Shown piece after piece: positions 31,942 to 51,777 of a stretch of 64,000 bases of DNA. Numbering within the stretch: the first letter of the stretch is position 1; each line of letters starts with the position of its first letter. The notes beneath the pieces were generated by a model. That model was given only the letters and a program-made list of their open reading frames with translations. It did not search any database and was not told the DNA's origin. Position numbers and translations under genes: made by a program. This DNA comes from Acidimicrobiia bacterium (GTDB lineage Bacteria > Actinomycetota > Acidimicrobiia > IMCC26256 > DASPTH01), in assembly GCA_036502765.1 (NCBI GenBank), contig DASXXX010000053.1, forward strand, positions 172 to 64,171. The letters are read 5' to 3'.

Positions 31942-31980
31942 AGAGGTGTCTGCCCAAGAAGCCTGAACCCGGGCGAGCCC

Positions 31981-32009: not shown

Positions 32010-32019
32010 AGGAGGAGCC

Positions 32020-33683: not shown

Positions 33684-33717
33684 GACTCTGGTGACGAGAG
33701 GCGGAAGTTCTCAAGGC

Positions 33718-36333: not shown

Positions 36334-39326
36334 CAGCCGGCCCTCCCCACATACGAACGGATCGCGTTCTTGGCGTCCCACGGATCTCGAATCTCGATGA
36401 AGTCCCACCGACCGAAGCCGCCGTGCGCGTTCACCGCCGGGATCCAGAAGTTCTTCGTGGTCGCGACCTTCTCAACCTTGTCGCGACGGAAGCCGCCGCT
36501 GACCTCTACGACAAGGTTGAGTGGAACATCGAGGCTCTCGTCGTAGCGGACAATGAAGTCGGGCAGGTAGTTGCGCTGCTCACCGTCGATCGCGTACGGG
36601 ATCGTGAAGCCGAGATGATCGTTCTTCACGTACGCGAGCACCTCGTCCATCGATTCCAAGCTCTCAGCCATCTTTCCTTCCCAACCAGAGTCGAGGACTA
36701 CGTGGCTGACATGGCACTTGTAGGGGCTGGTCTCGTAGACCTTCCTCGTCGTGTCGAAGTCGACGACAGCACTGGAGCCGCGATCACCGTCTGGCCGGAA
36801 TACCGGCTGGAGCCTCACCGTCTCCGGGTTCGTACGCACGATCGCTCGGTGTATGCGCGCCGCCGCGGCGTCCGCGAGTTTGTGGATTAGTAAGAGTTGG
36901 GGGAACGTGTCGTCCTTGCACTGAACGCACCGCCGCATCCAGTCGGAGACGATCGGGACCAGCTTCGGAAACAGCCACGCTTCCTCAAATCCGTCCTCGT
37001 CACGGAAATGGTTCTGGACGAGCCGGCGGGTAAGGCGGAAGGCGACCTCTTGCTCTCGAGTGGCGTGGAGCTGCTCGAGGGTGTGAACCTCAGTCGCGCC
37101 AACGATGCCAGCGATGTCGGTCTGGGTCGGCACGTCCTTGGTCGACAGCGCGAGGCGCGAGTCGGCGGTGAACCTCGCGCTCAGCTCGTCGGTCGACAGC
37201 ACGTACCGGTAGCCAGCGATGAGCGGGAAGTTGATCGCCGAGCCCTCGCGGCCAGGCAGCGCCCGCACGCGGGTGGTCGCGATCTCGGGCTTGGGCGTCT
37301 GCTCTGATCCCGCGGTCGGGATGAATGAGAAGGGAACGCCGTAGACCTCGGCGTACTCGGGCTCGAGACGGCCTTCGTCGTTGACGACATAGCTGCGGCG
37401 CCGAAGCCCGCGCCCCACGACTTGCTCGCACAGGAGCTGGGTGCCGAAGGCGCGAACGCCGAGAATGTGCGAGACCGTCGTCGCGTCCCAACCTTCGGTC
37501 AACATCGAGACCGAGACGACACAACGTACCTGCTCGCCGAGCTTGCCCGGCTTGCCCACGGTGTTGAGTACCTCGCGGAGAAGATCCTCGTCGGTGAGCT
37601 CCTCGGAGCTCCGACCCGGGAAGCGTTCTCGGTACTCGGCCTTGAACTCCTCGATCTCCGTGGCCGCGATCCGCTTGAACTCGTCGCTCATCACCTCGCC
37701 CGACTCGAGCTGCTCCGAGTCGACAAGGATCGTGTTGGGGCGATGAGTCCAATGGCCGTCCTCGACGTTCGAGAAGAGCGTCAGCTCTCCAGGCACCGGA
37801 ACGACGGACCCATCCGGGAGAGACTTCGACCAGCCAGCGACGTAGTCGAAGATCATCTTCGACACCGCCGTGTTGTTGCAGACGACGATGAACACCGGCG
37901 GCGTCGACGCGCTGCTCGCCGTGACGCTCTCTTGCCAGCCGACGAACGACTTCTCGTAATGCTCGTAGAGACTGTGGAGCGCACCTTGCAGCTCAGCCGG
38001 AAGTCGGGGGCCTGTCCCGTTATCGACGCCGGCGCTCCGGCGGTTCTTCTTGGGAAGCCCATCCTTGATTCGCAGCCAGAGGTTGCGGTACGTGACACCG
38101 TCGCCCAGCATCGCGTTGTCGCTCACGGGCACACGCGGAATCTTCACGATGCCGCACTCGACCGCGTCGGTGAGCGAGAAGTCGGAGACGACCCAGGGAA
38201 AGAGCTTGCCCTCGCGGTAACCGGAGCCGCCGAGGAAGAACGGCGTGGCCGAGAGGTCGTAGACCGTCTTCACGCCGAGCTTGGCGTGGATAGCCTGTAA
38301 CCCCGAGATCCAGACCATCGCCTCCTCGTTGCGGAGGTCGGCCTCTCGCTTCTCGTCACCCGTGAGCTTCACGTCGGCCGCTTCGCCGTCGGCAGCGTCC
38401 GCGGGACGACGCGCGTAACAGTGATGCGCCTCGTCATTCAACACCACGATCTGGTTCCGCCCGGCTCCGAGGTCGCGGCAGACGCGGCGAACCATCTGGT
38501 CCGGCGTCTCGCGGAAGGGATCGGAGCCGTCGGGATTCAGCACTGACTTCGTGAGACGGGCCGCCTTTCCCGCCTTCGTCTCACGCAACAGGAACGCGTG
38601 GAAGTTGGTGATGACGATGCGAGCCCGACCAAGCTGGTCCACGAGGTCGGCGGGGACGATGTCGCGCTGGCGGTAATAGTTGTCGGGGTCGCTCGGTAGC
38701 ACGACGCGCAAACGGTCCCTGATCGTGATGCCCGGCGTGACGATGAGGAACCGGTCGGAGAACCGGGCGTCCTGCGGGTTGGCAGCCTTGTTGAGCGTCT
38801 GCCAGGCGATCACCATTGTCATGACGACCGTCTTGCCCGATCCGGTCGCCATCTTGTGCGCGACGCGGAACAGCCCTGGGTTGTAGCGCGCGCTCTCGTC
38901 CGTGAGCAGGTTGGTGATCCAGACGTCGCCGACCTTGGTCGCGACCTCGGCGACGTAGATCGCGGTCTCGAGCGCCTCGATCTGGCAGAAGAAGAGTCGA
39001 CGCTCGCGCTCCGGACTGGTCCAGTAGGCGAGGAGCCGCCGGGTGGTCGGCGTGACACCCTGCCAACCGCCGAGGCGCCAACGCGCGACCCGCTCGCGAA
39101 TGCGGTTGATGTTCTCGCTGACCTCGATCCGGTCCCGCGTCCACTCGGCGTCGAGCGCGAGCTGCCCGCCCCGCTTCTTCGTCGCCGGGATCGGCACGAA
39201 GTACGAGCTGGGGCGACGGCCGTCGACGACTTCGTCGGTGATCCCGTCGTCGTCGAACCGGAAATGCTGGATGGGCTCGTCGTAGGGCGAGTTGAGGATC
39301 GGGTTCTCGATCACGACCGGCTTCAT
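36333..39326 (-). CDS. res: type III restriction enzyme Res-like DEAD/DEAH helicase-nuclease
   Basis: Start at MKPVVIENPILNSPYDEP (ATGA overlap with the upstream HTH gene). Walker A MATGSGKTVV, DEAH box LNDEAHH, C-terminal PD-(D/E)xK-like YLPDF...VVEVSGGFRRDK. Confidence 0.85.
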   Translation of the reverse strand: MKPVVIENPILNSPYDEPIQHFRFDDDGITDEVVDGRRPSSYFVPIPATKKRGGQLALDAEWTRDRIEVSENINRIRERVARWRLGGWQGVTPTTRRLLAYWTSPERERRLFFCQIEALETAIYVAEVATKVGDVWITNLLTDESARYNPGLFRVAHKMATGSGKTVVMTMVIAWQTLNKAANPQDARFSDRFLIVTPGITIRDRLRVVLPSDPDNYYRQRDIVPADLVDQLGRARIVITNFHAFLLRETKAGKAARLTKSVLNPDGSDPFRETPDQMVRRVCRDLGAGRNQIVVLNDEAHHCYARRPADAADGEAADVKLTGDEKREADLRNEEAMVWISGLQAIHAKLGVKTVYDLSATPFFLGGSGYREGKLFPWVVSDFSLTDAVECGIVKIPRVPVSDNAMLGDGVTYRNLWLRIKDGLPKKNRRSAGVDNGTGPRLPAELQGALHSLYEHYEKSFVGWQESVTASSASTPPVFIVVCNNTAVSKMIFDYVAGWSKSLPDGSVVPVPGELTLFSNVEDGHWTHRPNTILVDSEQLESGEVMSDEFKRIAATEIEEFKAEYRERFPGRSSEELTDEDLLREVLNTVGKPGKLGEQVRCVVSVSMLTEGWDATTVSHILGVRAFGTQLLCEQVVGRGLRRRSYVVNDEGRLEPEYAEVYGVPFSFIPTAGSEQTPKPEIATTRVRALPGREGSAINFPLIAGYRYVLSTDELSARFTADSRLALSTKDVPTQTDIAGIVGATEVHTLEQLHATREQEVAFRLTRRLVQNHFRDEDGFEEAWLFPKLVPIVSDWMRRCVQCKDDTFPQLLLIHKLADAAAARIHRAIVRTNPETVRLQPVFRPDGDRGSSAVVDFDTTRKVYETSPYKCHVSHVVLDSGWEGKMAESLESMDEVLAYVKNDHLGFTIPYAIDGEQRNYLPDFIVRYDESLDVPLNLVVEVSGGFRRDKVEKVATTKNFWIPAVNAHGGFGRWDFIEIRDPWDAKNAIRSYVGRAG

Positions 39327-39559
39327 CGGCGGTGCTCCCGGCCGGCTGAATCGGTCGGCCGGCCGTGTTGGCGCATCCAGTCGACGACCTGCGACCGCAG
39401 CCAAAGCCGGGGACGGCCGGGCCCAAGATCGATCACAGGACGCGGCATGTCCGGATAGCGCCGTTGGTAGCGGCTCACTGTGTTCCGCTGCGCCAGCCCC
39501 ATCAACGTCGCTACGCCCTGCGCGTCGATCAGGTCAGCGATCTCAACCGTCTTCGGCAC
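39323..39559 (-). CDS. excisionase/MerR-type helix-turn-helix DNA-binding protein (possible R-M controller)
   Basis: 78 aa. LIDAQGVATLMGLAQRNTVSRYQRR...RLWLRSQVVDW resembles small HTH_17/excisionase-family proteins. First gene of the HTH-res-mod operon. Confidence 0.65.
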   Translation of the reverse strand: MPKTVEIADLIDAQGVATLMGLAQRNTVSRYQRRYPDMPRPVIDLGPGRPRLWLRSQVVDWMRQHGRPTDSAGREHRR

Positions 39560-39647
39560 GGCCGGAGGCTACACCCGTTGACAAGCTCCAGCGCGACTAC
39601 CGCTCGCTGGCGCACGGGTGCACGTCGTAGACGACACGGACGCGGCC

Positions 39648-39828
39648 GGGAGTGATCGCGCGCGACCGGGTGTCAGGCAGGAGTCATCCGGGCCCACGCC
39701 GGGAGTCATCCGGCGCAGGCGGGAGCGATCCGCTCCTCAACCGGGAGCGACCGCGTGTTCGCTCCCGCAGAAAAATCTCTCGGCGGGAGTGATCGGGAGT
39801 AATTCCGGGAGTGATCGCGGGAGTGACA
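39648..39828. repeat. iteron-like array of about nine GGGAG(T/C)GA(T/C)C direct repeats with embedded inverted repeats
   Basis: Copies at about 39648, 39679, 39701, 39721, 39743, 39785, 39795, 39807 and 39819, with one more at about 40250. Two local palindromes: GGAGCG-ATC-CGCTCC and GGGAGCGA-N8-TCGCTCCC. Located in the divergent HTH/HTH intergenic region. Confidence 0.75.
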
Positions 39829-39910
39829 GTCCTCATCCTCACGGTCCAAGACGTCGGATCTTCGATCACGACGTCCCAACCGGCCCAACGTGCGCCCAGG
39901 AGGACTTGTC

Positions 39911-40285
39911 ATGGAGAGACTCACCTACACCGTCGCTGAGGTCGCCCAGGCCTTGGGCGTCTCGCGCTCGAAGGCATACACGCTCGTCGCCGAAGGGGCG
40001 ATCCCGATCGTTGCACTGCCCGGGCGGCGCAAGCTCGTCGCACGAGCGACGCTCGAGCAGCTGCTCGGGACTGGCACATCGTCAACCCGCGCCGAGTCGC
40101 GGACGACACCATCCGACCAACCCATCCTCGCCCACGACACCCGACCAGAGAGCCCGACCCACCACACCGAAAACAACCGACACCCAACCCCTCCCAGCAC
40201 GACCAACCACCCCGCGATCCCACATCAGACAGTTGCACCAGGGGTGCGCGGGAGTGATCAGGCACGGCGTGAGCCGTCGCGCTGA
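39911..40285 (+). CDS. excisionase-family HTH DNA-binding protein (Xis / relaxase accessory candidate)
   Basis: ATG preceded by GGAGGACTTGTC. MERLTYTVAEVAQALGVSRSKAYTLVAEGAIPIVALPGRRKLVARATLEQLL is the HTH_17 excisionase pattern. Low-complexity tail. The stop overlaps the relaxase start (TGATG). Confidence 0.7.
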   Translation: MERLTYTVAEVAQALGVSRSKAYTLVAEGAIPIVALPGRRKLVARATLEQLLGTGTSSTRAESRTTPSDQPILAHDTRPESPTHHTENNRHPTPPSTTNHPAIPHQTVAPGVRGSDQARREPSR

Positions 40286-42750
40286 TGCTCTCGATCGGGA
40301 AGCTCCGCCTCGAAGACGGTGTCGACTACTACCTGCGGACAGTCGCCGACGGTACCGAGGAGTACTACACCGCGCAGCACGAAGCCCCGGGCCGCTGGAT
40401 CGCCTCGAGTGAGCTGCTCGTCGGATTGTCGGGCGAGGTCTCGGGCTACGAGCTGCGCGAGGTGCTGGAGGGTCGGGACCCCTCGAGCGGCCTGATGCTT
40501 GTCTCGTCGCGGCGCACCCGTCCTGGGTTCGATCTGTGCTTCTCCGCGCCCAAGTCGATGTCATTGCTGTTCGTGTTCGGCGACTCCGCCATACGGCGAG
40601 CGGTCGTCGAGGCGCACGAGCGTGCCGTCCAGGCGTCGCTGGACTACCTGGAACGCGAGGCCTGCTGGGTCCGCCGAGGCCACGCCGGCGTTCTCCGGGT
40701 TCGCGCTGACGGGTTCATCGCCGCCGCGTTTCGACATCGGACGAGCCGCGCGGGTGACCCACAACTGCACACGCACGTCGTCGTCGCCAACGCCGCCCGC
40801 GGGCCCGACGGCAAGTGGAGCGCATTGCATGGCTACGCCCTCTACGAGAGCGCCCTGACGGCCGGTTACCTGTACCAGGCGCATCTGCGCCACGAGATCA
40901 GCCGCTCGCTCGGCGTCCGCTGGGGACCTGTGATATCAGGCTGCGCCGAGATGGCCGAGATCCCGGCCCATGTGCTCGAGGCGTTCAGCAAGCGAAGCGC
41001 CGACATCGAACGAAAGAAGGCCGAACAAGGCGTCACCGGACGGCACGGCGCAAAAATCGCCACGCTCGCCACCCGACCGGCGAAGGATCCTGAGGTCGAC
41101 GTCGCGTCGCTATTTCGCGAGTGGGAACGCCAAGCCGCCGACCTGGGCTTCGAGGCTACGACAGTTCGGTCACTCATCAGCCGTCGCGTCCACCCCGGCC
41201 TCGGGCGCGTCAACGATGGCGAGGTCGTTGACTCCTTGACGTTGCGCCAGTCGACGTTCGAGCGCGCCGAAGTCGTGCGAGCCGTCGCCGAGCGCGCACC
41301 CGACGGCGCGGCCGTCGGGGAGATCGAACGGTACGCCGATGCGCTCCTGGCCGGTGACCGCGTGGTGCGCGTGGCCGACGATATGTACTCGACTCCGCCG
41401 ATGCTCCGCCTCGAAGCCGGAATCCTCGAAACCGCGCAGCGACGCCTCGGAGGCGGGCTCGGTGTGGCTGATGTGGGTCTGGTCGAGACCGAGATCAGCC
41501 GACGACTCGTGCTGTCGGCCGATCAGGAAGACATGGTGCGGCAGCTCACAACATCGGGCAACGGTGTCGAGGTCGTCCTCGGTGTCGCGGGCGCAGGGAA
41601 GACCTCCGGACTCGAATGTGCGCGGACGATCTGGGAAGCCAGCGGCTACCAGACGATCGGCGTCGCGCTGGCTGCCCGCGCCGCCGTCGAGCTCGAGACC
41701 CGCTCCGGGATCCCGAGTTGCACGCTCGATGCGTTGCTCAGGGACCTCGCGCAACCCGGTGGTCCGCTGCCGTCACGCACCGTCGTGGTCGTGGACGAGG
41801 CCGCGATGGTCGACACCCGCCGACTCGCCCGCCTCCTGGTCCACACCGACGCCGCCGGCACGAAGGTCGTCCTCGTCGGCGACGATCACCAGCTTCCCGA
41901 GATCGGCGCCGGAGGAGCGTTCGCAGGCCTGCTCCGCCAGCTTCCCGCGGTCGTGCTCGCCGAGAATCGTCGGCAGACGGACGCGGTGGACCGACTGGCG
42001 CTCGCCGAGCTGCGCACCGGCAACGCCGAAGCGGCCGTCCGGCGGCTCGTCGCCAACGGGCGCATCAGCCTGGTCGACACAGCAGACGCGGCGCGCGAGC
42101 AGATGGTCCACGACTGGCGAGCAGCGACGCGGGGCGGGGACGACGCCGTGATGCTCGCCTCACGTCGAGTCGACGTCGAGGATCTCAATCGACGAGCCCG
42201 CTCGCAGCTCGTCGAAGAGGGCGCGGTGTATGCCCGAGGGATCACGATCCATGGTCACGAGTTCGCCGTCGGCGACCGCGTTATGACCCTGAGCAATCGC
42301 CGACGGCTCGGCGTCACGAACGGTGACCGTGGCACCGTCGTCGCCATCTGTGATGGGGAGGTCGCCATGCGCCTCGATCGGGGACCAACTATCGCTCTCC
42401 CAGCGAGCTACCTGCATGCCTGCCATCTCACCCACGCCTACGCCACGACGATCCACAAGGCCCAAGGCATGACGTGCGACCGCGCGCTGGTCCTCGCCAA
42501 CAATGCAATGTTCCGAGAGGCCGGCTACACGGCTCTGTCCCGTGGCAGGAAGGAGAACCGGCTGTACGTCATCACGCCCGATCGGCCGGATGTCGACGTC
42601 GGCCATGGCATCTTTGGCGACAGCGACCACCCACTCGACCGACTCGTCTCGACACTGGAACAATCACGGGCGAAGCACCTCGCCCTCGAAGAACTCATGC
42701 GAGGCCCAGCGGTGGACCCGCCGGCTCTCGGCCGGGGCATCGATCTGTAA
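40285..42750 (+). CDS. MobF-family relaxase (TrwC/TraA-like) with C-terminal RecD-like helicase
   Basis: 821 aa. N-terminal Tyr pair (VDYYL...EEYYT), 3-His motif HRTSRAGDPQLHTHVVVAN, helicase Walker A GVAGAGKTS and Walker B VVVVDEAAMV. Confidence 0.9.
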   Translation: MLSIGKLRLEDGVDYYLRTVADGTEEYYTAQHEAPGRWIASSELLVGLSGEVSGYELREVLEGRDPSSGLMLVSSRRTRPGFDLCFSAPKSMSLLFVFGDSAIRRAVVEAHERAVQASLDYLEREACWVRRGHAGVLRVRADGFIAAAFRHRTSRAGDPQLHTHVVVANAARGPDGKWSALHGYALYESALTAGYLYQAHLRHEISRSLGVRWGPVISGCAEMAEIPAHVLEAFSKRSADIERKKAEQGVTGRHGAKIATLATRPAKDPEVDVASLFREWERQAADLGFEATTVRSLISRRVHPGLGRVNDGEVVDSLTLRQSTFERAEVVRAVAERAPDGAAVGEIERYADALLAGDRVVRVADDMYSTPPMLRLEAGILETAQRRLGGGLGVADVGLVETEISRRLVLSADQEDMVRQLTTSGNGVEVVLGVAGAGKTSGLECARTIWEASGYQTIGVALAARAAVELETRSGIPSCTLDALLRDLAQPGGPLPSRTVVVVDEAAMVDTRRLARLLVHTDAAGTKVVLVGDDHQLPEIGAGGAFAGLLRQLPAVVLAENRRQTDAVDRLALAELRTGNAEAAVRRLVANGRISLVDTADAAREQMVHDWRAATRGGDDAVMLASRRVDVEDLNRRARSQLVEEGAVYARGITIHGHEFAVGDRVMTLSNRRRLGVTNGDRGTVVAICDGEVAMRLDRGPTIALPASYLHACHLTHAYATTIHKAQGMTCDRALVLANNAMFREAGYTALSRGRKENRLYVITPDRPDVDVGHGIFGDSDHPLDRLVSTLEQSRAKHLALEELMRGPAVDPPALGRGIDL

Positions 42751-42782
42751 CGCGAGCCCCGCCGCAACCCTCAGGAGGAAGC

Positions 42783-43928
42783 ATGCGTGGGAGCGTCATC
42801 AAGCGAGGCAACTCCTGGTCGGTCGTTATCGACTTCGGCCGGGACGCCGCCGGGAAGCGGATGCGCAAATGGCATTCGGGATTCGAGACTCGCAAGGAGG
42901 CCGAACGCGCGCGCACGGAGATCCTGAGCCGGCTCGACCACGGTACCTACGTCGAACCCGACCGTCGCACACTCAGTGACTTCCTGGAGCACGACTGGCT
43001 GCCAGCGATCAAGGCACGCATCCGGCCCTCGACCTGGGACAGCTACGCGCGCAATGTTCGCCTTCATGTCGTCCCTGAGCTTGGCGGCGAGCATCTCCAG
43101 TCGATCACGCCCGCCCGCCTGAATCGCTTCTACGCGGAAATGCTCGAGAGCGGTCGCATTGGCAGCGAGCGCGGCCTCTCACCCAAGACGGTCCGCTACG
43201 TGCACGGGATCATTCGCAAGGCGTTCGCCGATGCCGTCCGGTGGAACGTCGTGCAGAGGAACGTCGCGGATCTCGCCGATCCACCGAAGGTCGGGGCCGC
43301 GGGACGCGAGATGCAGACCTGGACCGCCGACGAGCTGCGAACCTTCCTCCACCACATCGAGGACCAGCGGCTCTACGCCGCCTACCTGCTCGCGGCCACT
43401 ACCGGGATGCGGCGCGGCGAGGTTCTCGGGCTGCGCTGGCAGGATGTCGATCTCGACCTTGCTCGGCTGTCGGTCCGCCAGACCATCGTCTCGGTCGCGT
43501 ACGAGATCAAGTTCGCCGAGCCCAAGACCACGCGGAGCCGCAGGTCGATCGCGCTCGATCAACGAACCGTCGCCGTGCTTCGTTCTTGGCGGAAGGTGCA
43601 GCTCGAAGATCGCATCCTGCTCGGCGACGACTACGAGAACTCGGGGCTCGTCTTCACCCGCGAGGATGGGCGCTTCATCCACCCAGACCGTTTCAGCCAG
43701 CTCTTCGACAAGTACGTCGGCTCGTCGGGGCTACCTCGTATCCGGCTCCACGATCTACGCCACACGCACGCGTCGCTCGCGCTCGCCGCGGGAGTGCACC
43801 CGAAGGTCGTGAGCGAACGCCTCGGGCATGCCACCGTCGCGTTCACACTCGACGTTTACTCGCATGCCGTCCCGGCGCTTCAAGAGGACGCGGCAGATCG
43901 AGTTGCGGCGTTGGTCTTCGGCGCGTGA
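42783..43928 (+). CDS. int: tyrosine-type site-specific recombinase/integrase
   Basis: ATG after AGGAGGAAGC. 381 aa. SAM-like N-domain plus catalytic residues in GMRRGEVLGLRW, RLHDLRHTHASL and LGHATVAFTLDVYSH. Confidence 0.92.
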   Translation: MRGSVIKRGNSWSVVIDFGRDAAGKRMRKWHSGFETRKEAERARTEILSRLDHGTYVEPDRRTLSDFLEHDWLPAIKARIRPSTWDSYARNVRLHVVPELGGEHLQSITPARLNRFYAEMLESGRIGSERGLSPKTVRYVHGIIRKAFADAVRWNVVQRNVADLADPPKVGAAGREMQTWTADELRTFLHHIEDQRLYAAYLLAATTGMRRGEVLGLRWQDVDLDLARLSVRQTIVSVAYEIKFAEPKTTRSRRSIALDQRTVAVLRSWRKVQLEDRILLGDDYENSGLVFTREDGRFIHPDRFSQLFDKYVGSSGLPRIRLHDLRHTHASLALAAGVHPKVVSERLGHATVAFTLDVYSHAVPALQEDAADRVAALVFGA

Positions 43929-44063
43929 TCCCGATCCAGACACCATCCCGCGCCAGTTTCACCTGCTCTCGTCGGGATGCCAGAACCCATAAATCTCGTC
44001 GTGGACCGGACACGGCGGACCGGTTCGCCGTTAGGCCCTTGGAGAACCAGACGGAGGGCGACG

Positions 44064-44351
44064 TTGGCGACACGAGTCCAGATCCAGTGCATCAACAAGA
44101 AGAACCGGCTCGACCCGCATGACAGAATCAACCACGTCGGCGGTCTGAATGCGGATCAGACCCGGTGGAAGCTCACCGAGACCGATGCCATCGCCGGCAT
44201 TGATGAGGGCAAATGGTCTTTCTACGTCGTAAACCCGCGGGGTGGTGTGGTTGAAGTCATCGTGGTCACCCGGCTCGGGCACCGCTACCTCAAGACCGTC
44301 GCAGATGGCGATCAGCCTGACAACCTGCTTGCGCTTCCCGAGTGTCCTTGA
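44064..44351 (+). CDS. DUF3892-domain protein
   Basis: TTG start 5 nt after GGAGGG, in frame with track ORF 43977..44351. VQIQCINKKNRLDPHDRINHVGG...WKLTETDAIAGIDEGKWSFYV...YLKTVADGDQPDNLLALPEC matches the DUF3892 pattern. Confidence 0.65.
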   Translation: MATRVQIQCINKKNRLDPHDRINHVGGLNADQTRWKLTETDAIAGIDEGKWSFYVVNPRGGVVEVIVVTRLGHRYLKTVADGDQPDNLLALPECP

Positions 44352-44510
44352 TCTGGCTACGGCTCGTCCCGCCGCGCTGGAATTCAGAATGATCGAGCCT
44401 CAGGGGGCGCGGTCTGGCTACCAGCAACTTCGGCGCTGCGACCGTGACGATCATCATGGCCTTCACCACAGCGAGACGTAGCGCCAGGCGATTGGCAGCT
44501 CGGTCGCGCA

Positions 44511-44849
44511 GTGAGCACAGATGAGCCGTTCCTTCCGGTCATTGGTGACGTCTACGAGGTTCACCGCGACGTTCGGGCCGGCGCCGCGCTCGACAAGAAG
44601 GAGTGGCGGCGAGCAGTCGTCGTCGAGGTGCCCGAGGCGGGCGGGATGATCGGCATCGTGACGCGGACGACCACCAAGGCGAAGCCCGGCGTGCACTCAG
44701 GTAAGGACGCGGCGTCCGGTTTGACGAAGGAAGGCCGCTTCGACCGCCCAGGCTGGGTTCAGGCAGTGCATTGGAATCCGCGGACGGTGCGCCGGGTTGG
44801 CAAACTTGACGAAGCGCTCTTCGCAAAGATCAAGGAGCGCTTCGTCTGA
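44511..44849 (+). CDS. PemK/MazF-like (SH3-barrel toxin fold) protein, tentative
   Basis: 112 aa, GTG start. The GDVYEV...RRAVVVEV...GIVTRTTT...RRVGKLDEALFAKIKE layout parallels MazF/PemK blocks (GDI..V, RP.VV, P.T.., G.L....). Assignment is by eye only. Confidence 0.45.
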   Translation: MSTDEPFLPVIGDVYEVHRDVRAGAALDKKEWRRAVVVEVPEAGGMIGIVTRTTTKAKPGVHSGKDAASGLTKEGRFDRPGWVQAVHWNPRTVRRVGKLDEALFAKIKERFV

Positions 44850-45817
44850 TGAGCGCTTGGCAGGAACTCGCCGATACCGGTCGGCTCGGCAACGAGTCGA
44901 GCGCGCTCATCTATGCGACAGTTCGCGCCGTCGGGCGAAGCTTCCCGCCGCCCGAGGGCTACCGCACCTGGACCGGCGACGCTGTCATCGAAGCGGCTCA
45001 TGATTTTGTCGCCGAAGCCCCGAAGCGGGTGCTCGACGCGTGGCTCGGCGCCGTAGATGAGCGGAGCTTCGAGGTTCGCATGCAGGGCGCGGTGAGGAAC
45101 TGGTTCAGAGACCGAGGCCGCCGAACGCGGTTGGGTCGACTGGTCCGTCGGATCCGCGAAGTACTGGATGACGACAACGACTTCGCGCGAACGGGCAACG
45201 CGGCGACAAGGGACGAGCGGTGGCATCTGACCGGCGGTCCAGCGGCCCCGACAACGGCGACTGAACACGAATTGTTGCTCGCGGCCGCGACCGAAAAGGA
45301 CGTCGCGATACCCCGTTGGCACGCGAAAGCAAAGCGCCAAGCACCCGACGCCGACCGAGACACGATCGTTCGCCTTGCACGTCGAATCCTCGAGGCGGCG
45401 GACGGTTCCGTCGCAGGGTCCGATCTGGCACGGGCAATGGGTCACCGCCTCGGAGTCGCGCCTCAGCCGCAGTCGCTTGAGTTGGACGAGCACGATGAAT
45501 CGGATCTCGCCGACCCGACCGCAGAGCAGGCAGTCGAGCACTCGGTAGCGAGGATGACGGCCCATGACATCTTCGAACGTCTGACGCTGCGAGAGCGGCT
45601 CGTGGTAGCGACATGGACTGAGAGCGTTCGGAACTCTGGCGCAGCGTTGGGCTTAGGCCACAGCCAGGCCGCCACGCTGAGAGAACGAGTCGTCGCCATG
45701 GTCCGAAGTGAGCTGATCGATGACGACATGGCCGAAGTTGTGCTCGACGAACTCACAACGAAAGCCGCTGAATGGTGGCCCAGCCGGACGCGCGATGACA
45801 ATCCGCCGTTTCAATGA
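44849..45817 (+). CDS. sigma-70/ECF-like protein (region 2-like and region 4-like segments), tentative
   Basis: 322 aa. The start overlaps the upstream stop (TGATG). AVRNWFRDRGRRTRLGR resembles sigma region 2.x. FERLTLRERLVVATWTESVRNSGAALGLGHSQAATLRERVVAMV resembles the region 4 HTH. About 120 aa are inserted between them. Confidence 0.45.
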   Translation: MSAWQELADTGRLGNESSALIYATVRAVGRSFPPPEGYRTWTGDAVIEAAHDFVAEAPKRVLDAWLGAVDERSFEVRMQGAVRNWFRDRGRRTRLGRLVRRIREVLDDDNDFARTGNAATRDERWHLTGGPAAPTTATEHELLLAAATEKDVAIPRWHAKAKRQAPDADRDTIVRLARRILEAADGSVAGSDLARAMGHRLGVAPQPQSLELDEHDESDLADPTAEQAVEHSVARMTAHDIFERLTLRERLVVATWTESVRNSGAALGLGHSQAATLRERVVAMVRSELIDDDMAEVVLDELTTKAAEWWPSRTRDDNPPFQ

Positions 45818-47262
45818 GAGTGCGAGGAGAACGCGATGGGACAGCCGAGGTCATGAACGAACACCTTCTCGACACGGAACTCTTGCGACTCGCCGAGGGT
45901 GACGCCGAAGCCGAGGTAGCCGAACTCTGGAACCAACACCTTGCCGAATGCGCCCTCTGCGCGGAGCGCTTTCGCGTCTATCCGGCTGGGGGCCAACGCC
46001 CCCGGACCACACCGAGCTTCGACATGGAGGTTCTGCCTGACGAGCTGCGGCGACTCATCGTCTCTTCCACATCCAAGGGGGAGGCACCGCAGCCCGGTCA
46101 GGTATGGCGACTCGTTGGCAGCGACGAGGCCGTGATGGCCCTGATTCTTCGCGTGAGGGAGACGGGATTGATTGTTGCGCCCGTCACGCTCGATGTTGAG
46201 CTCGCCGACGACGCCACCCCTGTCGTAACTGCGGAGGCTTCGCCGATCGGAATCGCACTCGCGGTATGGGGAAGCCTCACATCAGAGGTGACGCTTGACA
46301 GTGCCGACAGGTACCTCTTCGATCTGCCGCTTGTTGACGCCGTCAGGCAAGCTCGATCGGGAACCGATCCATCGTTGCCAGGCGTGACCCGTGGGGTTCC
46401 GATCGTCTCGGTCATCGACACTCGCGTCGAATATCGCCAGCACCTCCTCGAAGTCCTTGAGTCGCTTTCTCCTCACTCGTACGACGACGAAGATGACGAT
46501 GAAGATGACGATGAAATCGATGGTGGCAAGTTCGACGATACGTACGAACGCGTTGAGGCTCTGCCAGCCTGGGCGCGGCAACGGCCGGACCTCGCCCGCC
46601 TCGTGCAAGATCTCGAGCTGGAGCTACAGATCCGCAGACCAAGTGGCTGCGTGCTGCGTTACCTCCCGAAGCTCGACCAAGTCCTGGTGGCTGAGAAAAC
46701 TCTGTTCGGAGTTGCTGTTGTCTCCGAGATGGACGTAGTACTGCCGATCTTCGTGTCCGAGACGCCATCCTTCGTCGGCATCCCGCTTGAGACACCTGCG
46801 CAGCTCTTGAAGAAGGATGCCGATGCAACGGCTGTCGTCATTGCCGTCGGTAGTGGTCTAACTGCCGAAGCAATCGCAGTTCAGCCCCATGAAGCGAACG
46901 ACGCGATCGAGGCCCCGTCCGGGGAGATCGCGCCTCCACGATGGCCGTCTCCGCTGGGACTTCCTGACTGTGTCGCCGGCTTTCTTGAGCAGAGCATCTG
47001 GACTTGGGAGCCCGTTTCTGATTCCGCGCTGCATGTCGCGACTCTGAACATGGTCGACGTTGTCGCGCGAGCAACACAGGAAGCGCTCGCAGAAACCGCG
47101 GCGAGGTCTACCGGATTTAAGATCACGGAGAAGAAGGACGGGTACAGCTCAATCGGTGCAACTGATGCCCCTGCGATTACGTCGCTTGTTACGGCATCGG
47201 AGGCGAACGGACACGGGGGCGCTTCTCGCCTCATCGACGAATACATCGGAGCGCCGACGTGA
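45814..47262 (+). CDS. protein with N-terminal ZAS-type (H-x3-C-x2-C) anti-sigma motif and large uncharacterised C-terminal region
   Basis: 482 aa. ATGA overlap with the upstream gene (alternative start at 45853). HLAECALC at residues 42-49. Acidic stretch YDDEDDDEDDDEIDGGKFDD mid-protein. No TM helix seen. Confidence 0.5.
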   Translation: MRVRGERDGTAEVMNEHLLDTELLRLAEGDAEAEVAELWNQHLAECALCAERFRVYPAGGQRPRTTPSFDMEVLPDELRRLIVSSTSKGEAPQPGQVWRLVGSDEAVMALILRVRETGLIVAPVTLDVELADDATPVVTAEASPIGIALAVWGSLTSEVTLDSADRYLFDLPLVDAVRQARSGTDPSLPGVTRGVPIVSVIDTRVEYRQHLLEVLESLSPHSYDDEDDDEDDDEIDGGKFDDTYERVEALPAWARQRPDLARLVQDLELELQIRRPSGCVLRYLPKLDQVLVAEKTLFGVAVVSEMDVVLPIFVSETPSFVGIPLETPAQLLKKDADATAVVIAVGSGLTAEAIAVQPHEANDAIEAPSGEIAPPRWPSPLGLPDCVAGFLEQSIWTWEPVSDSALHVATLNMVDVVARATQEALAETAARSTGFKITEKKDGYSSIGATDAPAITSLVTASEANGHGGASRLIDEYIGAPT

Positions 47263-49007
47263 TCCGCAAATTGCAGCTGCGAAATTGGCGCGCTTACGCG
47301 AACCTCACCTCGGACTTCGAACCTGGGACGACGTTCGTCGTCGCAAGAAACGGCGTCGGCAAGACCAGCATGGTGAGCGGGCTCGCGTGGACTCTGTACG
47401 ACCGGCCAGTAGCGGAAGTGAAGGCGTCTCTCCATGACGGCGCGCCCGCCGACGGCTGGGTCGAACTCATCCTTCCGAATGACACGGTCCTGTCCGTACA
47501 TCGACACTTCGACGGGCGTCGTTCGACACTCGAAGCCTCGGTCGACGGAACGAATCTTTCCCCAGACGCGTATGAGGCCTTTTTGGTAGAGGCGTTGGGC
47601 GCGTCGACGGCTCTTCTGTCACGAACAACTGTCATGAACGAAGGTGATGCACGACCGCAAGCTGCGGAAGAGCTTCATCTACGTGACCACCTTTGCCAGG
47701 TGCTTGGTGTTACCGGCCTCTTGGAGCTGTCTGGAGAGCTCTCGAATCGAATCAAGGAAAATGAGAAGGCGACCTCTCGAATCCGCAGCGCCGCGAAGAT
47801 CTCCCAGGACCAACTCGTCGCGCTCCGAAGCGAGCGAGAGAGATTGGAGAGCGACCTAGCGAGCGCCAAGGCGGAGTCAGAGGCGCTGCGCGCGAAATAC
47901 GACGATGCTCGTCGGAGACTCACGGCCGTCGAGAGTGCCAGCGCTCTTGCCTCGATTGCAGAAGAGCGCGACGAGCAGCTTCACCAGATCGCCGTCGACC
48001 TCAATGCCGTGACCGGATCATCGCCAGATGCAGCGATCGAACCGATGCTGACGCGCACGGAGGGAGAGCTCGATGCCCAGATAGAGCTCATGCATCGGCG
48101 GGATGCCGAACTGCAGGCCCGTGCTCGATACATTCGGGACGGCCTCGCTTCCCTAAACGAGACCGGCGAGGGTACGTGCCCCGTCTGCAGGCGTCCGCTC
48201 AGATCCAAGGACGTCTCGGAAGCGCGGACCGGACATGAGAGCGAACTCGCCGCAATCGAAGCTGAGATCGCAGAGATCGACAACACGGCGCTCAGCGAAC
48301 GTCGAGAGGCGCTTCGTGAGCTGCGTCGTCGGCTGAGCTTGGTGCCGGCCGTCCCTGACATTCCTGTCGCTGAAGTCACCCTCCAAGAGGCACAGCTTCT
48401 TGAGAGGGAGGCACAGGAGGCCCTTGAAGACCTGGTCGGACGCACTCGTGTGCTGGAGTCCCAGCTTGCTGATACTGCCAGCCAGGTGACAAGCGCGGAG
48501 AACGACCTCATCGCCTCGGCAGACGCAACCCGGCACTTCAGGTATGAGGCACTCCTTGGAGCCGCGAGATCCACTGCCGACGAGGTTGTTCGTTACGCCC
48601 TTGAGGCACAGATCGACCCGCTCGCCGCAGCCGTCCGTGACCGTTGGAAGCTCTTGTTCGGACAGCGGGGTGATCTTCATCTCGACACTGACGGCTCGCT
48701 TTACCGTCTCGCCAACCATGTACGTTTGCCCTTCGCGCAATTCAGCGCAGGCGAGCGGACTACTGCGCTACTCATCCTGCGTATGTTGGCGGTAGCGGCT
48801 TCGACACGCGCCGGATTCGTGTGGGTAGACGAGCCGCTTGAGCATCTCGACCCGGATGGACGCCGACGGGTGGCGTCAATGCTCTCCCAAGCGACGGCAC
48901 CGACCGGACTCCGCCAGGTACTCATCACGACGTACGAGGAACCACTAGCCCGCCGACTGAGCGAGAGGGTCGACGGAGTCCATCTTCGTTACGTGCGGGC
49001 CGCGTAG
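47259..49007 (+). CDS. Rad50/SbcC/SMC-like AAA ATPase with central CxxC hook
   Basis: 582 aa. GTGA overlap with the upstream gene. N-terminal Walker A ARNGVGKTS, long heptad-like Glu/Arg/Leu-rich middle, CPVC at residues 307-310, C-terminal signature FSAGERT and Walker B FVWVDEPLEHLD. Confidence 0.8.
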   Translation: MIRKLQLRNWRAYANLTSDFEPGTTFVVARNGVGKTSMVSGLAWTLYDRPVAEVKASLHDGAPADGWVELILPNDTVLSVHRHFDGRRSTLEASVDGTNLSPDAYEAFLVEALGASTALLSRTTVMNEGDARPQAAEELHLRDHLCQVLGVTGLLELSGELSNRIKENEKATSRIRSAAKISQDQLVALRSERERLESDLASAKAESEALRAKYDDARRRLTAVESASALASIAEERDEQLHQIAVDLNAVTGSSPDAAIEPMLTRTEGELDAQIELMHRRDAELQARARYIRDGLASLNETGEGTCPVCRRPLRSKDVSEARTGHESELAAIEAEIAEIDNTALSERREALRELRRRLSLVPAVPDIPVAEVTLQEAQLLEREAQEALEDLVGRTRVLESQLADTASQVTSAENDLIASADATRHFRYEALLGAARSTADEVVRYALEAQIDPLAAAVRDRWKLLFGQRGDLHLDTDGSLYRLANHVRLPFAQFSAGERTTALLILRMLAVAASTRAGFVWVDEPLEHLDPDGRRRVASMLSQATAPTGLRQVLITTYEEPLARRLSERVDGVHLRYVRAA

Positions 49008-49126
49008 CACTTGGAGCGCGCTCGTTGCATTTTCTCAGATCGCGCCGGACACGCGGACTCGATCCGTCGTATGGCACCGGAGCCGGAGTGCTCATCGGAG
49101 CGCCCCCGTCTGAGAGCGGAGATCGT

Positions 49127-50398
49127 ATGCGCATTGGACCGCAGGCCGGGATCCTGAATCGACCGCCAGAGCATCAGCTTGTTGCTGCGCTCGCCTTCGT
49201 TGGCGAGCGCTCGCGCCAGCCCTGTGTGGACACTCTCGAGGCGCTGCGAACGGTATTGCGCCGCGAGCTTCACAGCGACATTGACTCGCCCGACGCAACG
49301 ACCGACAAGGGGCAACCGTTCGTCGAAACCGGTGAACTCGGATTTCAGGACGGATTTGATCGAGGTCATCTGACCGTGACCGTGAGCTTCTCTGCATCAG
49401 CCATGGACGCTCTCGAGGTTCCGGCCGCGCTTCGGCCGCAAGATCTTGTTGCCGCACCCTGGGATGCTCTAGGCATCGCACCCGCCGTGCCTGCCGCCGG
49501 CGACGTTCTCGTCCAGATCTGCACTGACAGCCCATACGTCGCAGAACATGTGCTCCGTCGAATCGAGCACAGCCTGGACGGTCGCATGCAGGTCGTCTGG
49601 TGTGTCGCAGGCGACCAACGCTTCACGAGCCGGTCCGGCCGCGTCAATGCAGGAGAGGCTCGGGCGCTGAACGGCTTCCTCGATGGGACCGCGAACCTCG
49701 ACCCCGCGCAGAGCGACGACGACTACGCGCTTGTCTTCATCGATCCTGATGTGGTGGCTGCGTATCCATCAAACCCACCAGCGGGTCAGCAACCGCAGTC
49801 GGCGTATGGGCCCAACAACAACCCGGTGTTTCCCCCGCTGCGTGACAAGCCGACGTTCGAGCCACCTTGGACTCGTGACGGAACCTATTTGTTCGTTCAA
49901 GCAATCGTGCTCGAGGTAACCGGATGGGACAAGACATCGCTCACCGATCAGGAGCACGCGGTCGGGCGCTACAAGGTGTCAGGAACGGCGCTGGACTTGC
50001 CGGACGACCCCAGCCACCGAAACGACACGCCGGCGTACGCGGCAAATCCCAGCGACGAGACCGTGCCAGTCGACTCACATATTCGGAAGTCGAATCCTCG
50101 CGGTCCTGAAGATGCGCTCCGACGCATTTATCGCCGCGGATACCCGCTGATGATTGCGGATGGAAGCGGCGCCATGCGTCGAGGCCTGCTCTTTGAGTCC
50201 TTCTCGCGGAGCACGAGCACACAGGTCGAGTTTATTTTGCGTGCCTGGATGCTCAACCCGGATTTCCCACGGCCGAGCGCGGGCAAGGACAAGCTCATCG
50301 CCTTCTTCAGCGCGACGCTGTGTGGCGGCTACTACTTCGCACCACCGCTCGATCACTCTCGCGACCCGTCATCCTGGCGTATCCCGGCCACGACGTGA
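49127..50398 (+). CDS. Dyp-type peroxidase family protein
   Basis: Start at the internal ATG after GGAGATCGT (MRIGPQAGILN...). GFLDGTANL (GxxDG), DSHIRKSNPR (proximal His) and the RRGYP region. No Tat signal or encapsulin tag seen. Confidence 0.8.
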   Translation: MRIGPQAGILNRPPEHQLVAALAFVGERSRQPCVDTLEALRTVLRRELHSDIDSPDATTDKGQPFVETGELGFQDGFDRGHLTVTVSFSASAMDALEVPAALRPQDLVAAPWDALGIAPAVPAAGDVLVQICTDSPYVAEHVLRRIEHSLDGRMQVVWCVAGDQRFTSRSGRVNAGEARALNGFLDGTANLDPAQSDDDYALVFIDPDVVAAYPSNPPAGQQPQSAYGPNNNPVFPPLRDKPTFEPPWTRDGTYLFVQAIVLEVTGWDKTSLTDQEHAVGRYKVSGTALDLPDDPSHRNDTPAYAANPSDETVPVDSHIRKSNPRGPEDALRRIYRRGYPLMIADGSGAMRRGLLFESFSRSTSTQVEFILRAWMLNPDFPRPSAGKDKLIAFFSATLCGGYYFAPPLDHSRDPSSWRIPATT

Positions 50399-50424
50399 TG
50401 CCCTGACCGAGTAGCCGCGCTCAC

Positions 50425-50886
50425 CTACCGTCGAGGCGGTTCGCGCGGCCATCGACGCTCTACAGAAGCGCGGTACACAACGTCGACGAACGGGCCGCGC
50501 CTCCGAGCGCGTTGCACAAGGCGGTTGATGTTGCGCGCGAAGTACTCGGCCATCTGCGGCCCGGTCAGGTGCTGATTCGCGATGGCGAAGACCCGAAGTT
50601 GGCTGTTGACCAACGTCGCTTGGTTCTCGGGGTCCCGGTAGATGCGCTCGTCCTTCGTCAAGGCAACCCAGCCCGCGGCATCGGCGTCGGCGATCCACCG
50701 AGTGTCGGCGACTCGCTGGTCCTCGCCTCCCGGATAGACGTCCACCATCGTGTGCACGGTCAGTCCGAGCTGTCGCAGAGCCTCGGGCACGACGTGGCGT
50801 CCGAGGCTGCGATCGACGAAGAACTCAGGCTGCTGCTCGACTCGGCGCGGCAAGGGCAGCGTGTACGTCGTCGAGCGGGACGCCAT
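50425..50886 (-). CDS. PIN-like toxin (DUF5615 / Mut7-C, VapC45-like), tentative
   Basis: EFFVDRSLGRHVVPEALRQLGLTVHTM...WVALTKDERI resembles DUF5615/Mut7-C PIN-like domains that pair with DUF433 antitoxins. Start uncertain (50886 or 50904). Overlaps the upstream gene by about 60 nt. Confidence 0.6.
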   Translation of the reverse strand: MASRSTTYTLPLPRRVEQQPEFFVDRSLGRHVVPEALRQLGLTVHTMVDVYPGGEDQRVADTRWIADADAAGWVALTKDERIYRDPENQATLVNSQLRVFAIANQHLTGPQMAEYFARNINRLVQRARRRGPFVDVVYRASVERRWPREPPRR

Positions 50887-51619
50887 AATCCTCGGCCACC
50901 TCAAGCTCGTCCTCGCCCGCTTCGATGCGGCCGATCACATCGGCAAGCCTGGCCGCGCCATGGATGAAGATCGGCTGACCAAACGCGCGCTCCGGATCAG
51001 CGACGAGGATCGACTCTTCGGTGATTGGAAGAGCGAGTCGAATCGCCCAGCCGCCGTCGTACTCGATCCGCTTGAGGTACTGGTCGATCACATCGTGGAA
51101 CACGCGCTGGCCCGACCGAACGACAGTCAGAAGGCCAAGCTGTTTGTCTCGCTGTGACTTGGCGTAGTCGAAGAGCAGCTCCGCACCATCGGTGTACAGG
51201 TGACGGGACGCCAGCGCGTGCTCCAGACCCATCTCCTGGTCAAGTCGCTCGAGTGCCGGCCTAATCCGTTGCAGCGGGAGGCCGGTCTCGCGGAACGCGG
51301 CGAGGACCATGCCCTCCGCCAAGCCGACGAAGGGTATCGTCAGCCGTCCGCCCGGCACGCTCGTAAGCAGCGCCTCGCCTGCAACCGGTTTGCGCCCAGC
51401 CGGCCGACGAACATAGCCCCGCACCCACGTGTCGAACGTCGACCTCGGCACTCCGAGGTACGAGGCGGCCTCGGTCACCGTGTACAGCGGCCGGGTAAAA
51501 CGCGGGTCGGTGGTGTTCAGCGGAGCAGCCCTTCTCAAAGTCGAGACGGCCAAACCGTACCGCCGAGGTATGACGCGGACGCGGAGGAACGGCACCGATC
51601 GCGCGTGGGCTGCAACCAT
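50825..51619 (-). CDS. HTH + DUF433 antitoxin-like protein (VapB45-like), tentative
   Basis: RPLYTVTEAASYLGVPRSTFDTWVRGY (MerR-like HTH), with C-terminal GQPIFIHGAARLADVIGRIEAGEDELEVAEDYGVPLDDVHAAL (DUF433-like). Start uncertain: ATG at 51619, or TTG at 51538. Confidence 0.6.
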   Translation of the reverse strand: MVAAHARSVPFLRVRVIPRRYGLAVSTLRRAAPLNTTDPRFTRPLYTVTEAASYLGVPRSTFDTWVRGYVRRPAGRKPVAGEALLTSVPGGRLTIPFVGLAEGMVLAAFRETGLPLQRIRPALERLDQEMGLEHALASRHLYTDGAELLFDYAKSQRDKQLGLLTVVRSGQRVFHDVIDQYLKRIEYDGGWAIRLALPITEESILVADPERAFGQPIFIHGAARLADVIGRIEAGEDELEVAEDYGVPLDDVHAALAAPSRAAA

Positions 51620-51639
51620 TTGGGTTGCAAAATGGTTGC
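51611..51639. repeat. subterminal 29-bp box TGCAACCATTTGGGTTGCAAAATGGTTGC (right copy)
   Basis: Identical to 31913..31941. Lies about 60 bp inside the right att repeat. Confidence 0.8.
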
Positions 51640-51654
51640 GAGGCCCGGATGCAG

Positions 51655-51685
51655 AGAGGCCCTGAGCTCGTCGCTCAGGGCCTCT
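51655..51685. terminator. 13-bp-stem hairpin AGAGGCCCTGAGC-TCGTC-GCTCAGGGCCTCT downstream of tRNA-Met
   Basis: Perfect inverted repeat 16 nt beyond the tRNA 3' end, on element-derived DNA. No U-tract, so the terminator role is inferred. Confidence 0.4.
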
Positions 51686-51700
51686 GACCTGCATCTTCGA

Positions 51701-51777
<77 letters not shown>

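Follow-up and report, generated by a model that had tools for sequence, protein, structure and literature searches.

Sigma/anti-sigma switches that operate downstream of immune sensors are just emerging, among them CalpL-T-S, Csx30/CASP-sigma and DdvS/DdvA. In the CRISPR-associated CalpL-CalpT-CalpS (CalpL-T-S) system, CalpT, which is made up of a domain resembling MazF, an unstructured linker and a docking domain, has been shown experimentally to be the anti-sigma factor of CalpS, a sigma factor of ECF-like type (bioRxiv 10.1101/2024.05.08.593097). The DdvS/DdvA pair controls a CBASS/CRISPR island and is an example of a defence island placed under a pair of this type (PMC11506125). Bub operons likewise carry signal-responsive regulatory front ends, namely CapW, CapH+CapP or CapK+CapS (PMC11601596, PMC13373217). 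Here we describe a cassette of four genes, designated S, A, B and C (nt 44511-49007), in a 64,000-nt stretch of DNA from an Acidimicrobiia bacterium (GenBank assembly GCA_036502765.1, contig DASXXX010000053.1), the whole of which is referred to as the window. The genes encode a MazF/PemK-like protein (S), a sigma-70-family-like protein (A), an anti-sigma-like multidomain protein (B) and a small Rad50/SMC-like ATPase (C). We read the cassette as a cytoplasmic sigma/anti-sigma-type switch with the Rad50-like ATPase as its built-in sensor, and assign this reading a probability of roughly 55%. More probable than this is the narrower proposition that, in fold and ancestry alone, A resembles sigma factors and B anti-sigma factors; the DNA-sensing step, taken by itself, is less probable.

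Compared with the published description of CalpL-T-S, the switch proposed here would have in common a soluble MazF-like anti-sigma protein with a poorly structured linker and a sensor-docking domain, a divergent sigma-like partner encoded next to it, an association with defence, and a sensor that is a separate protein. CalpL-T-S consists of three genes, whereas the cassette adds the MazF-like gene S. The sensor of CalpL-T-S is a SAVED-Lon protease activated by cyclic tetra-adenylate (cA4) and associated with type III CRISPR, whereas the candidate sensor here is a Rad50/SMC-like ATPase and there is no CRISPR locus. B differs from CalpT in its additional N-terminal ZAS zinc module and in lacking DUF2080, for which no match was found in B or its homologues, and A, with three domains and about 320 amino acids, differs from the compact ECF-like CalpS.

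The pair A-B also resembles the ZAS/ECF pairs RsrA-SigR, ChrR-RpoE, RslA-SigL and DdvA-DdvS, in the H-x3-C-x2-C motif with a further ligand upstream and in the sigma gene lying immediately upstream of its partner. In contrast to these pairs, A is not identified as an ECF sigma factor by any curated model, and B is predicted to lie wholly in the cytoplasm and to combine a MazF-fold domain with an ATPase-linked one. Group 3 sigma factors (FliA/SigD, SigB/F/G and RpoH) have the three-domain layout and the length of A and are its top structural matches, FliA being the best match for sigma-4. The middle domain of A, however, is modelled as a winged helix with beta strands where canonical sigma-3 is a bundle of helices, A has no sequence signature of region 2 or region 3, and the partner B is of the ZAS type, not of the kinase type (SpoIIAB/RsbW) or the FlgM type.

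The four genes follow one another directly on the forward strand (Table 1). The TGA stop codon of S and the ATG of A share one base (TGATG), the GTG start codon of C lies within the stop of B (GTGA), and an ATGA stop/start overlap is found between A and B at 45814-45817. An initial annotation, made from the letters of the window, had regarded the last of these as mirroring the usual sigma/anti-sigma operon organisation. The overlap exists, but is perhaps not used, because B probably starts at the ATG at 45853 (MNEH...) rather than at 45814. The later start is the more likely one because the database record of the B product is 469 amino acids long and B homologues begin 2-3 residues ahead of the first conserved His. 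The S/A and B/C overlaps are better grounded than that between A and B, and S-A-B-C is a single operon-like cassette. The open reading frames of 322 and 482 amino acids reported earlier for A and B were both recovered; the pair so described was incomplete, the 112-amino-acid frame of S having been overlooked. A and B are named 'hypothetical protein' in every source that names them. A conserved block is common to the regions upstream of the cassette in close relatives, but the kinship of these loci is too close for it to be informative.

Single-sequence searches with A gave no match in Pfam, PADLOC or PHROGs and nothing usable from the Protein Data Bank (PDB). In a word-indexed search A and B had appeared near-unique, with one match each. 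An exhaustive HMMER search with A and one homologue recovered at least 619 representative clusters at E <=1e-3 and 120 at E <=1e-30, and the apparent rarity is therefore an artefact of the word-indexed search. Nearly all members of the A family are 300-345 amino acids long. A profile of 110 sequences matched the PDB through its last ~60 residues only, the best match being sigma region 4 of FliA (E 5e-5 to 6e-5), followed by WhiG (3e-3) and then by the LuxR-type helix-turn-helix (HTH) domains of NarL, FixJ and EL222. When compared with sigma-4 of bona fide ECF sigma factors, the C-terminal domain scored 15.0 and 10.0 bits, with all 1600 shuffles lower (maximum 7.9). Sigma70_r4 or r4_2 was matched by 9 of the 110 members, and TIGR02937, which spans sigma-2 to sigma-4, by 30 of them at E <=0.05 (best 9.6e-6); TIGR02937 was the only recurrent NCBIfam family, with no rival. 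On these profile comparisons, the identity of the C-terminus of A as sigma region 4 can be regarded as established.

The AlphaFold2 model of A, computed from the family alignment, has a predicted local distance difference test (pLDDT) score of 93.3 and comprises an N-terminal six-helix domain, a winged-helix domain, a disordered linker and a C-terminal helical HTH domain. A Foldseek search of the PDB with this model returned nearly only full-length sigma factors, aligned over ~300-360 columns, including the B. subtilis SigB and SigD models, sigma-32, Thermus sigma-A, S. aureus SigB and sigma-S. Phage sigma factors were returned from a viral library, and SigF and SigG were also among the top PDB and viral matches. 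The initial annotation had described A as a protein with sigma-like ends and about 120 extra residues between them, including a second HTH-like stretch. That stretch, SDLARAMGHRLGV, is present at residues 191-203 and falls within the winged-helix domain, and the supposed insert is instead modelled as a folded domain at the position of sigma region 3. This middle domain gave HTH_IclR matches in eight family members and MarR matches in two; against true ECF sigma factors it scored no better than shuffles. Of the two sigma-like ends, the C-terminal one was borne out (FliA, E 6e-5), whereas region 2, which serves core binding and -10 recognition in sigma factors, is undetectable by sequence. Taken together, the modelled fold and the family profiles lead us to read A as sigma-70-family-like, though very divergent, with three domains laid out in the manner of group 3.

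Single-sequence searches with B were equally without a match in Pfam, PADLOC and PHROGs, and again yielded nothing usable from the PDB. B carries the sequence HLAECALC, that is H42-x3-C46-x2-C49, and the same H-x3-C-x2-C motif is found in the loci L047 and L048. The four positions H17, H42, C46 and C49 do not vary among nine B homologues (21-34% identity). We take the resulting spacing, H-x24-H-x3-C-x2-C, to be that of ZAS anti-sigma factors, in which the fourth ligand, judging from those of ChrR, presumably lies ~25 residues upstream. One B homologue (P0155 in L043) passes the Pfam model zf-HC2 (PF13490) with 28.3 against 22.2 bits, and zf-HC2 is matched by 6 of 21 aligned B members. The three best PDB matches of the B family profile were ChrR (E 0.04), DdvA (0.044) and ChrR again, all at E 0.04-0.05 and covering the whole anti-sigma domain. 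The earlier description of B as ZAS-anti-sigma-like is supported by its invariant ligands and by its family, while the protein of the window itself passes no threshold. At the family level, where the initial annotation would have taken a lack of significant matches as refuting it, profile matches exist both to sigma domains (FliA, E 6e-5) and to ZAS domains (zf-HC2, passed by the homologue), and the resemblance of A-B to a sigma/anti-sigma pair is not superficial.

The AlphaFold2 model of B is of moderate overall confidence (pLDDT 65), which depends on the region. All of the top 50 Foldseek matches of B were MazF toxins (probability 1.00, target template-modelling (TM) score 0.57-0.71, ~110 columns), and B is therefore predicted to include a MazF-fold domain. 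The acidic tract highlighted in the initial annotation is present directly behind this domain; it is far shorter in homologues and appears to be a lineage-specific expansion. Beyond it, residues 260-395 were modelled with pLDDT 61-86, and the C-terminal helices after residue 395 with low values. No convincing transmembrane helix was found in B, the maximum 19-residue Kyte-Doolittle mean being 1.9 at TLFGVAVVSEMDVVLPIFV, a stretch with E and D among its residues for which the model shows beta strands. The lack of such a helix agrees with the initial annotation, but its picture of a ZAS protein with a cytoplasmic-looking tail missed both the MazF-fold domain and the ATPase-linked C-terminal domain. 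From the model and the alignments, B would be composed of a ZAS module, a MazF-fold domain, a linker and a C-terminal domain. The C-terminal domain is present in every sampled locus with C (in L048 at 42.7 bits), and is absent from two independent homologues linked to Bub operons (L046 and L047).

The order A-B-C recurs in at least 10 independent loci; with or without S, it was found in L002/L003, L004, L037-L041 and L048, which come from actinobacterial genomes or metagenomes. In a sister clade (L005-L011), an ATPase homologous to C (33-35% identity) is preceded by a protein of ~300 amino acids, B', whose sequence hhalign matches to the C-terminal half of B (95% probability, E 2.5e-8) and which is without the Cys motif. 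The first gene of these triads encodes a compact protein of ~210 amino acids that passes Pfam Sigma70_r2 in L006 (29.1 against 24 bits). As judged from this match, the nearest related system has a recognisable sigma factor in the place of A; homology of A to the Sigma70_r2-positive sister proteins is proposed from gene position alone. The sister triads (for example L006:3438-8762 and L011:6495-11703, with an ATPase of 589 amino acids) occupy a conserved chromosomal neighbourhood in metagenome-assembled genomes of desert and soil Actinomycetota, and genes for an ECF-SnoaL_2 sigma factor and for a PIG-L deacetylase come after them. This conserved neighbourhood suggests a housekeeping or stress role, rather than a mobile one, for the sister version.

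Other relatives of A are followed by a shorter protein with ZAS and MazF-fold parts, then by an M78 peptidase and a Multi_ubiq/ThiF/BubE (Bub) operon. A-B pairs accordingly exist without any SMC-like ATPase, and the A-B core is modular, with two exchangeable back ends, either the mini-Rad50 C or an M78 peptidase with a Bub operon. Known front ends, CapH+CapP among them, are modular in a comparable way (PMC11601596, PMC13373217). In CBASS and Bub front ends of the CapH+CapP kind, an HTH repressor is paired with an M78 peptidase; the same position directly upstream of Multi_ubiq/ThiF/BubE is taken in the Bub-linked cassettes by the A-B relatives and their M78 peptidase, with S, a sigma-like A and a ZAS/MazF-fold B in place of the simple HTH repressor. 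The cassette of the window, in contrast, has no peptidase and no Bub genes. In the literature we found described neither this sigma-like/ZAS front end nor an SMC-like ATPase linked with a sigma/anti-sigma pair.

Two further features of the Bub-linked loci and the A relatives were noted. The M78 peptidases that follow the Bub-linked A-B genes (L043:4897-5922 and L035:4956-5978) have a Cys-rich C-terminal extension with several CxxC pairs, which looks like a zinc-ribbon sensor domain. Protein P0054 (L033:8001-10601 and L034:1336-3936), an 866-amino-acid call with a Prok-JAB gene downstream, has an A-like N-terminus and a ThiF E1-like C-terminus joined by an Arg/Pro-rich low-complexity stretch; it may be a real fusion or an artefact of a frameshift or of gene calling, and was excluded from the evidence.

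The alternative that survives best, which we nevertheless consider unlikely, is that A is a conventional DNA-binding transcription factor, made up of a winged helix and a LuxR-type HTH and acting as a repressor or activator of the cassette. B would then be a signal-responsive modulator comparable to those of CapH+CapP, ImmR/ImmA and CapS/CapK, with the ZAS motif reused as a generic zinc-stabilised binding helix. The C-terminal HTH is the only part of A that is significant by sequence and also matches NarL, FixJ and EL222, and the middle domain matches IclR and MarR winged-helix models in some members, but the full-length Foldseek matches are sigma factors, not LuxR or IclR proteins, in two independent libraries. 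The N-terminal domain lacks a sigma-2 sequence signal, whereas the positional equivalent of A in the sister triads passes Sigma70_r2 and TIGR02937 remains the sole recurrent NCBIfam family, in 30 of 110 members. Repressor-type front ends do govern known Bub operons (PMC11601596, PMC13373217); the partner family of A, however, bears the anti-sigma zf-HC2 signature.

C scores above the Pfam thresholds for SMC_N (54 bits) and AAA_23 (47 bits), and has PADLOC matches to mad3 (4.8e-17) and LmuB (1e-11). It also matches Rad50 head and zinc-hook structures in the PDB, among them the hooks 6zff (E 5e-6) and 1l8d (2.5e-5), and scores 22.6 bits with Rad50_zn_hook, slightly under the cut-off. The Walker A, signature, Walker B and D-loop motifs are intact in C and kept in 12 homologues, and the CP[VIT]C hook is invariant. 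C thus resembles Rad50/SbcC and Lamassu LmuB in its ABC-type head motifs, short coiled coil and CxxC zinc hook. It differs from them in its length of only 582 amino acids, in the replacement of the H-loop His by Tyr, in its sigma/anti-sigma-like partner genes and in the absence of a partner nuclease, no Mre11/SbcD gene being present in the cassette or related loci. Membership of Lamassu was rejected, as LmuB is matched by C but S, A and B match no PADLOC model, LmuA and LmuC included. MADS, an eight-gene mad1-8 operon with a methyltransferase, was rejected likewise, as only mad3 is matched, by C, and the cassette has four genes.

S gave no Pfam match. In five other loci (L038, with 39% identity and E 2.5e-16, L042, L043, L044 and L001) a homologue of S immediately precedes A, and S is missing from the A-B-C loci L002 and L004. 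The top four PDB matches of the S family profile were MazF7 and MazF6 of M. tuberculosis, with full-length alignments and at a sub-significant E of 0.08-0.19. The Arg of R-P-x-V-V is kept in five of six sequences and the Thr of T-R-T-[ST] in all six, and we take these residues to be equivalent to the catalytic positions R29 and T52 of E. coli MazF.

Less probable again is a Lamassu- or Wadjet-like defence complex of the SMC type, in which A and/or B would be kleisin- or adaptor-like and bridge the ATPase heads, S would be a MazF-like RNase effector released on DNA sensing, and the sigma/anti-sigma resemblance would be ancestral and non-functional. The LmuB and mad3 matches of C and the defence-island-like element with its Type III restriction-modification genes fit such a complex, but no kleisin, LmuA or LmuC model was matched. 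The layout of A, with a helical N-terminal domain, a flexible linker and a C-terminal HTH, is kleisin-like, yet no kleisin was among its top structural matches. A as a kleisin was rejected in view of the Bub-linked A-B pairs, in which the core occurs without any SMC-like ATPase. S retains the MazF-like Arg and Thr positions, whereas its absence from the A-B-C loci L002 and L004 speaks against such a complex. The initial annotation had offered adaptor or kleisin-like partners of the ATPase as a fallback; the adaptor part is partly right for B, because its C-terminal domain was seen only next to the ATPase among the sampled loci, while the kleisin part is disfavoured for A.

For the sigma/anti-sigma switch, we infer the protein-protein contacts, the signal and the output of the cassette as follows. 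B would keep A inactive by means of its ZAS zinc-helix module and of its MazF-fold domain, the latter being the fold with which CalpT holds CalpS, and the C-terminal domain of B would dock on C. C would act as the signal receiver, most plausibly of DNA ends or of foreign or damaged DNA, like Rad50 and Lamassu LmuB. Signal-dependent ATPase cycling of C would alter or expose B, whose long disordered acidic linker is a likely hinge or cleavage site, and A would be released either by an ATP-driven change or after the linker has been laid open to cellular proteases. The freed A would bind RNA polymerase, so that transcription is redirected or growth arrested, and S may act as an RNase effector or else pair with the MazF-fold domain of B. 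Because the cassette rides on a mobilisable element integrated at tRNA-Met, beside Type III restriction-modification genes, it is likely to function in defence or in stress response. That the cassette is instead a toxin-antitoxin-like unit, with S a MazF toxin neutralised by B (through a heterodimer with the MazF-fold domain, or with the acidic tract as a MazE-like tail), A an autoregulator and C an accessory, is very improbable: it would suit the two MazF-fold modules per cassette, the acidic disordered tract right after the MazF-fold domain of B and the translational coupling of S to A, but S is missing from L002 and L004 despite intact A-B-C, the tract is specific to the lineage of the window and much shorter in homologues, the MazF assignment of S is sub-significant (E 0.08), and the conserved ZAS motif and the sigma-like fold would be left unexplained.

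Several observations weigh against the proposed switch. A passes no curated sigma model, scoring 15.1 bits with TIGR02937 against a cut-off of 42.9 (E 0.014), and Pfam Sigma70_r2 was matched neither by A nor by any of the 110 family members. The N-terminal profile of A reached at most 4.0 bits against true ECF sigma factors, where shuffles reach 7.6, and hhalign and BLASTP comparisons of the A family with the compact Sigma70_r2-positive sister-clade protein detected no relationship. Since the Foldseek matches of A are marginal (E 1.8e-3 at best, TM ~0.2), the putative sigma-2 domain is assigned according to which targets rank top, that is, by fold ranking only; a low TM is expected if the domains match and their mutual arrangement differs from the holoenzyme-bound form. 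Because sigma-4 and LuxR/GerE HTHs are related, the C-terminal match alone cannot tell a sigma factor from an ordinary transcription factor. The B protein of the window gave no match to zf-HC2 and E 0.2 with the RsrA model, below every zf-HC2 and RsrA threshold, and its N-terminal helices were modelled with pLDDT of 57-71 only. In C and in all 11 homologues examined, Tyr (TTYE, C residues ~555-560) stands in place of the H-loop His, and ATP hydrolysis by C may therefore be slow or absent. A consensus scan of 43900-50500 revealed no sigma-70-type promoter site, and no promoter emerged as a target of A. Whereas CalpL-T-S and the M78-linked version include a protease, none is encoded in the cassette, which makes the release step speculative. 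On balance, the observation made in the initial annotation was confirmed, and its interpretation is partly supported.

A broader reading, which we put forward tentatively, as possible rather than probable, is that a Rad50/SMC ATPase serves as a DNA sensor with a transcriptional, not nucleolytic, output, by way of a docked MazF-fold ZAS anti-sigma factor that gates an unrecognised three-domain branch of the sigma-70 family, and that the same core is the master switch of actinobacterial Bub operons, with the M78 peptidase as an alternative sensor. If this were true, A would stand for a new and widespread class (at least 600 clusters) of defence- or stress-linked sigma factors. If A works as a sigma factor, the SMC/Rad50-like ATPase would be a third type of sensor for such switches. 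Defence-linked sigma/anti-sigma switches are of a kind already known; new here are the coupling to this sensor and the large family behind it, which is unannotated and missed by current sigma-factor models. The cassette offers a test bed for signal relay by SMC-like sensors without a nuclease, and hints at how many actinobacterial Bub operons may be switched on.

The cassette is carried by an integrative, mobilisable element of ~19.9 kb (31761-51747) integrated at tRNA-Met. The element is bracketed by perfect 49-nt direct repeats, for which 0 are expected by chance, and contains a relaxase and an integrase, so the earlier description of A and B as mobile-element cargo was correct. GC content, 0.68-0.70 in the window, drops to 0.61-0.66 at about 30-50 kb. 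The gene content comprises a Fic protein, Type III Mod/Res, a TrwC relaxase, a tyrosine integrase, DUF3892, S-A-B-C, a Dyp peroxidase and an HTH_66/DUF433 protein, and the company of the cassette is defence-like.

Table 1 Features of the S-A-B-C cassette, its encoded proteins and the surrounding element (nt, position in the window)
Feature	Position (nt)	Residues	Strand	Description
S	44511-44849	1-112	+	112-aa MazF/PemK-like protein, directly 5' of A
A	44849-45817	1-322	+	322-aa sigma-70-family-like protein, three predicted domains
A, N-terminal six-helix domain	44849-45169	1-107	+	at sigma region 2 position; pLDDT 91-98
A, winged-helix domain	45182-45451	112-201	+	at sigma region 3 position; AlphaFold2 secondary structure
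A, disordered linker		205-222		AlphaFold2 model
A, C-terminal helical HTH	45521-45784	225-312	+	sigma region 4 / LuxR-type
B	45814-47262	1-482	+	482-aa anti-sigma-like multidomain protein; 469 aa from ATG 45853
B, ZAS-type zinc motif	45862-45972	17-53	+	H17-x24-H42-x3-C46-x2-C49; three short predicted helices
B, MazF/PemK-fold beta domain	46081-46479	90-222	+	predicted; pLDDT 84-91
B, acidic linker	46480-46539	223-242	+	DDEDDDEDDDEIDGGKFDD; predicted disordered, pLDDT <50 over 223-257
B, alpha/beta domain and C-terminal helices	46591-47247	260-478	+	predicted
C	47259-49007	1-582	+	582-aa mini-Rad50/SMC-like ATPase
C, CPVC zinc hook	48177-48188	307-310	+	apex of short coiled coil
attL-like copy of tRNA-Met 3' part	31761-31809			left element end; perfect 49-nt direct repeat
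attR-like repeat inside tRNA-Met	51699-51747			right element end; perfect 49-nt direct repeat
tRNA-Met gene	51701-51777		-
Mod	33718-36408		-	N6_N4_Mtase, 896 aa
Res	36333-39404		-	ResIII helicase and weak endonuclease domain, 1023 aa

Several features of the element itself were observed. The integrase (42474-43928) lies in mid-element, away from the att site. A second direct repeat of 33 nt, 97% identical between its copies, is found just inside both element ends (31909-31941 and 51607-51639; GGGYTGCAACCATTTGGGTTGCAAAATGGTTGC) and holds internal GGTTGCAA repeats; it may be an arm-type site of the integrase or an excisionase site. Beside attL, a Fic/DOC-family protein of 428 amino acids (32020-33306) overlaps an unannotated open reading frame of 221 amino acids on the minus strand (31833-32498). 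The Type III restriction-modification genes follow on the minus strand (33718-39404) and overlap one another.

On the other side of the cassette, the Dyp-type peroxidase gene (49025-50398) probably starts at an ATG near 49127 (MRIGPQ..., with GGAG ahead) rather than at the TTG at 49025. The initial annotation had named this gene as a possible target of A, a link that was not upheld: the probable start is ~120 nt downstream of C, and none of the related loci that were screened for the Dyp gene contains it. DUF3892 and a TrwC relaxase, which lie at 40285-44351 in the window, also occur beside A-B cassettes in an unrelated metagenomic contig (L035:8055-10369). This recurrence raises the possibility that mobilisable elements of one kind carry the cassette around in its different versions.

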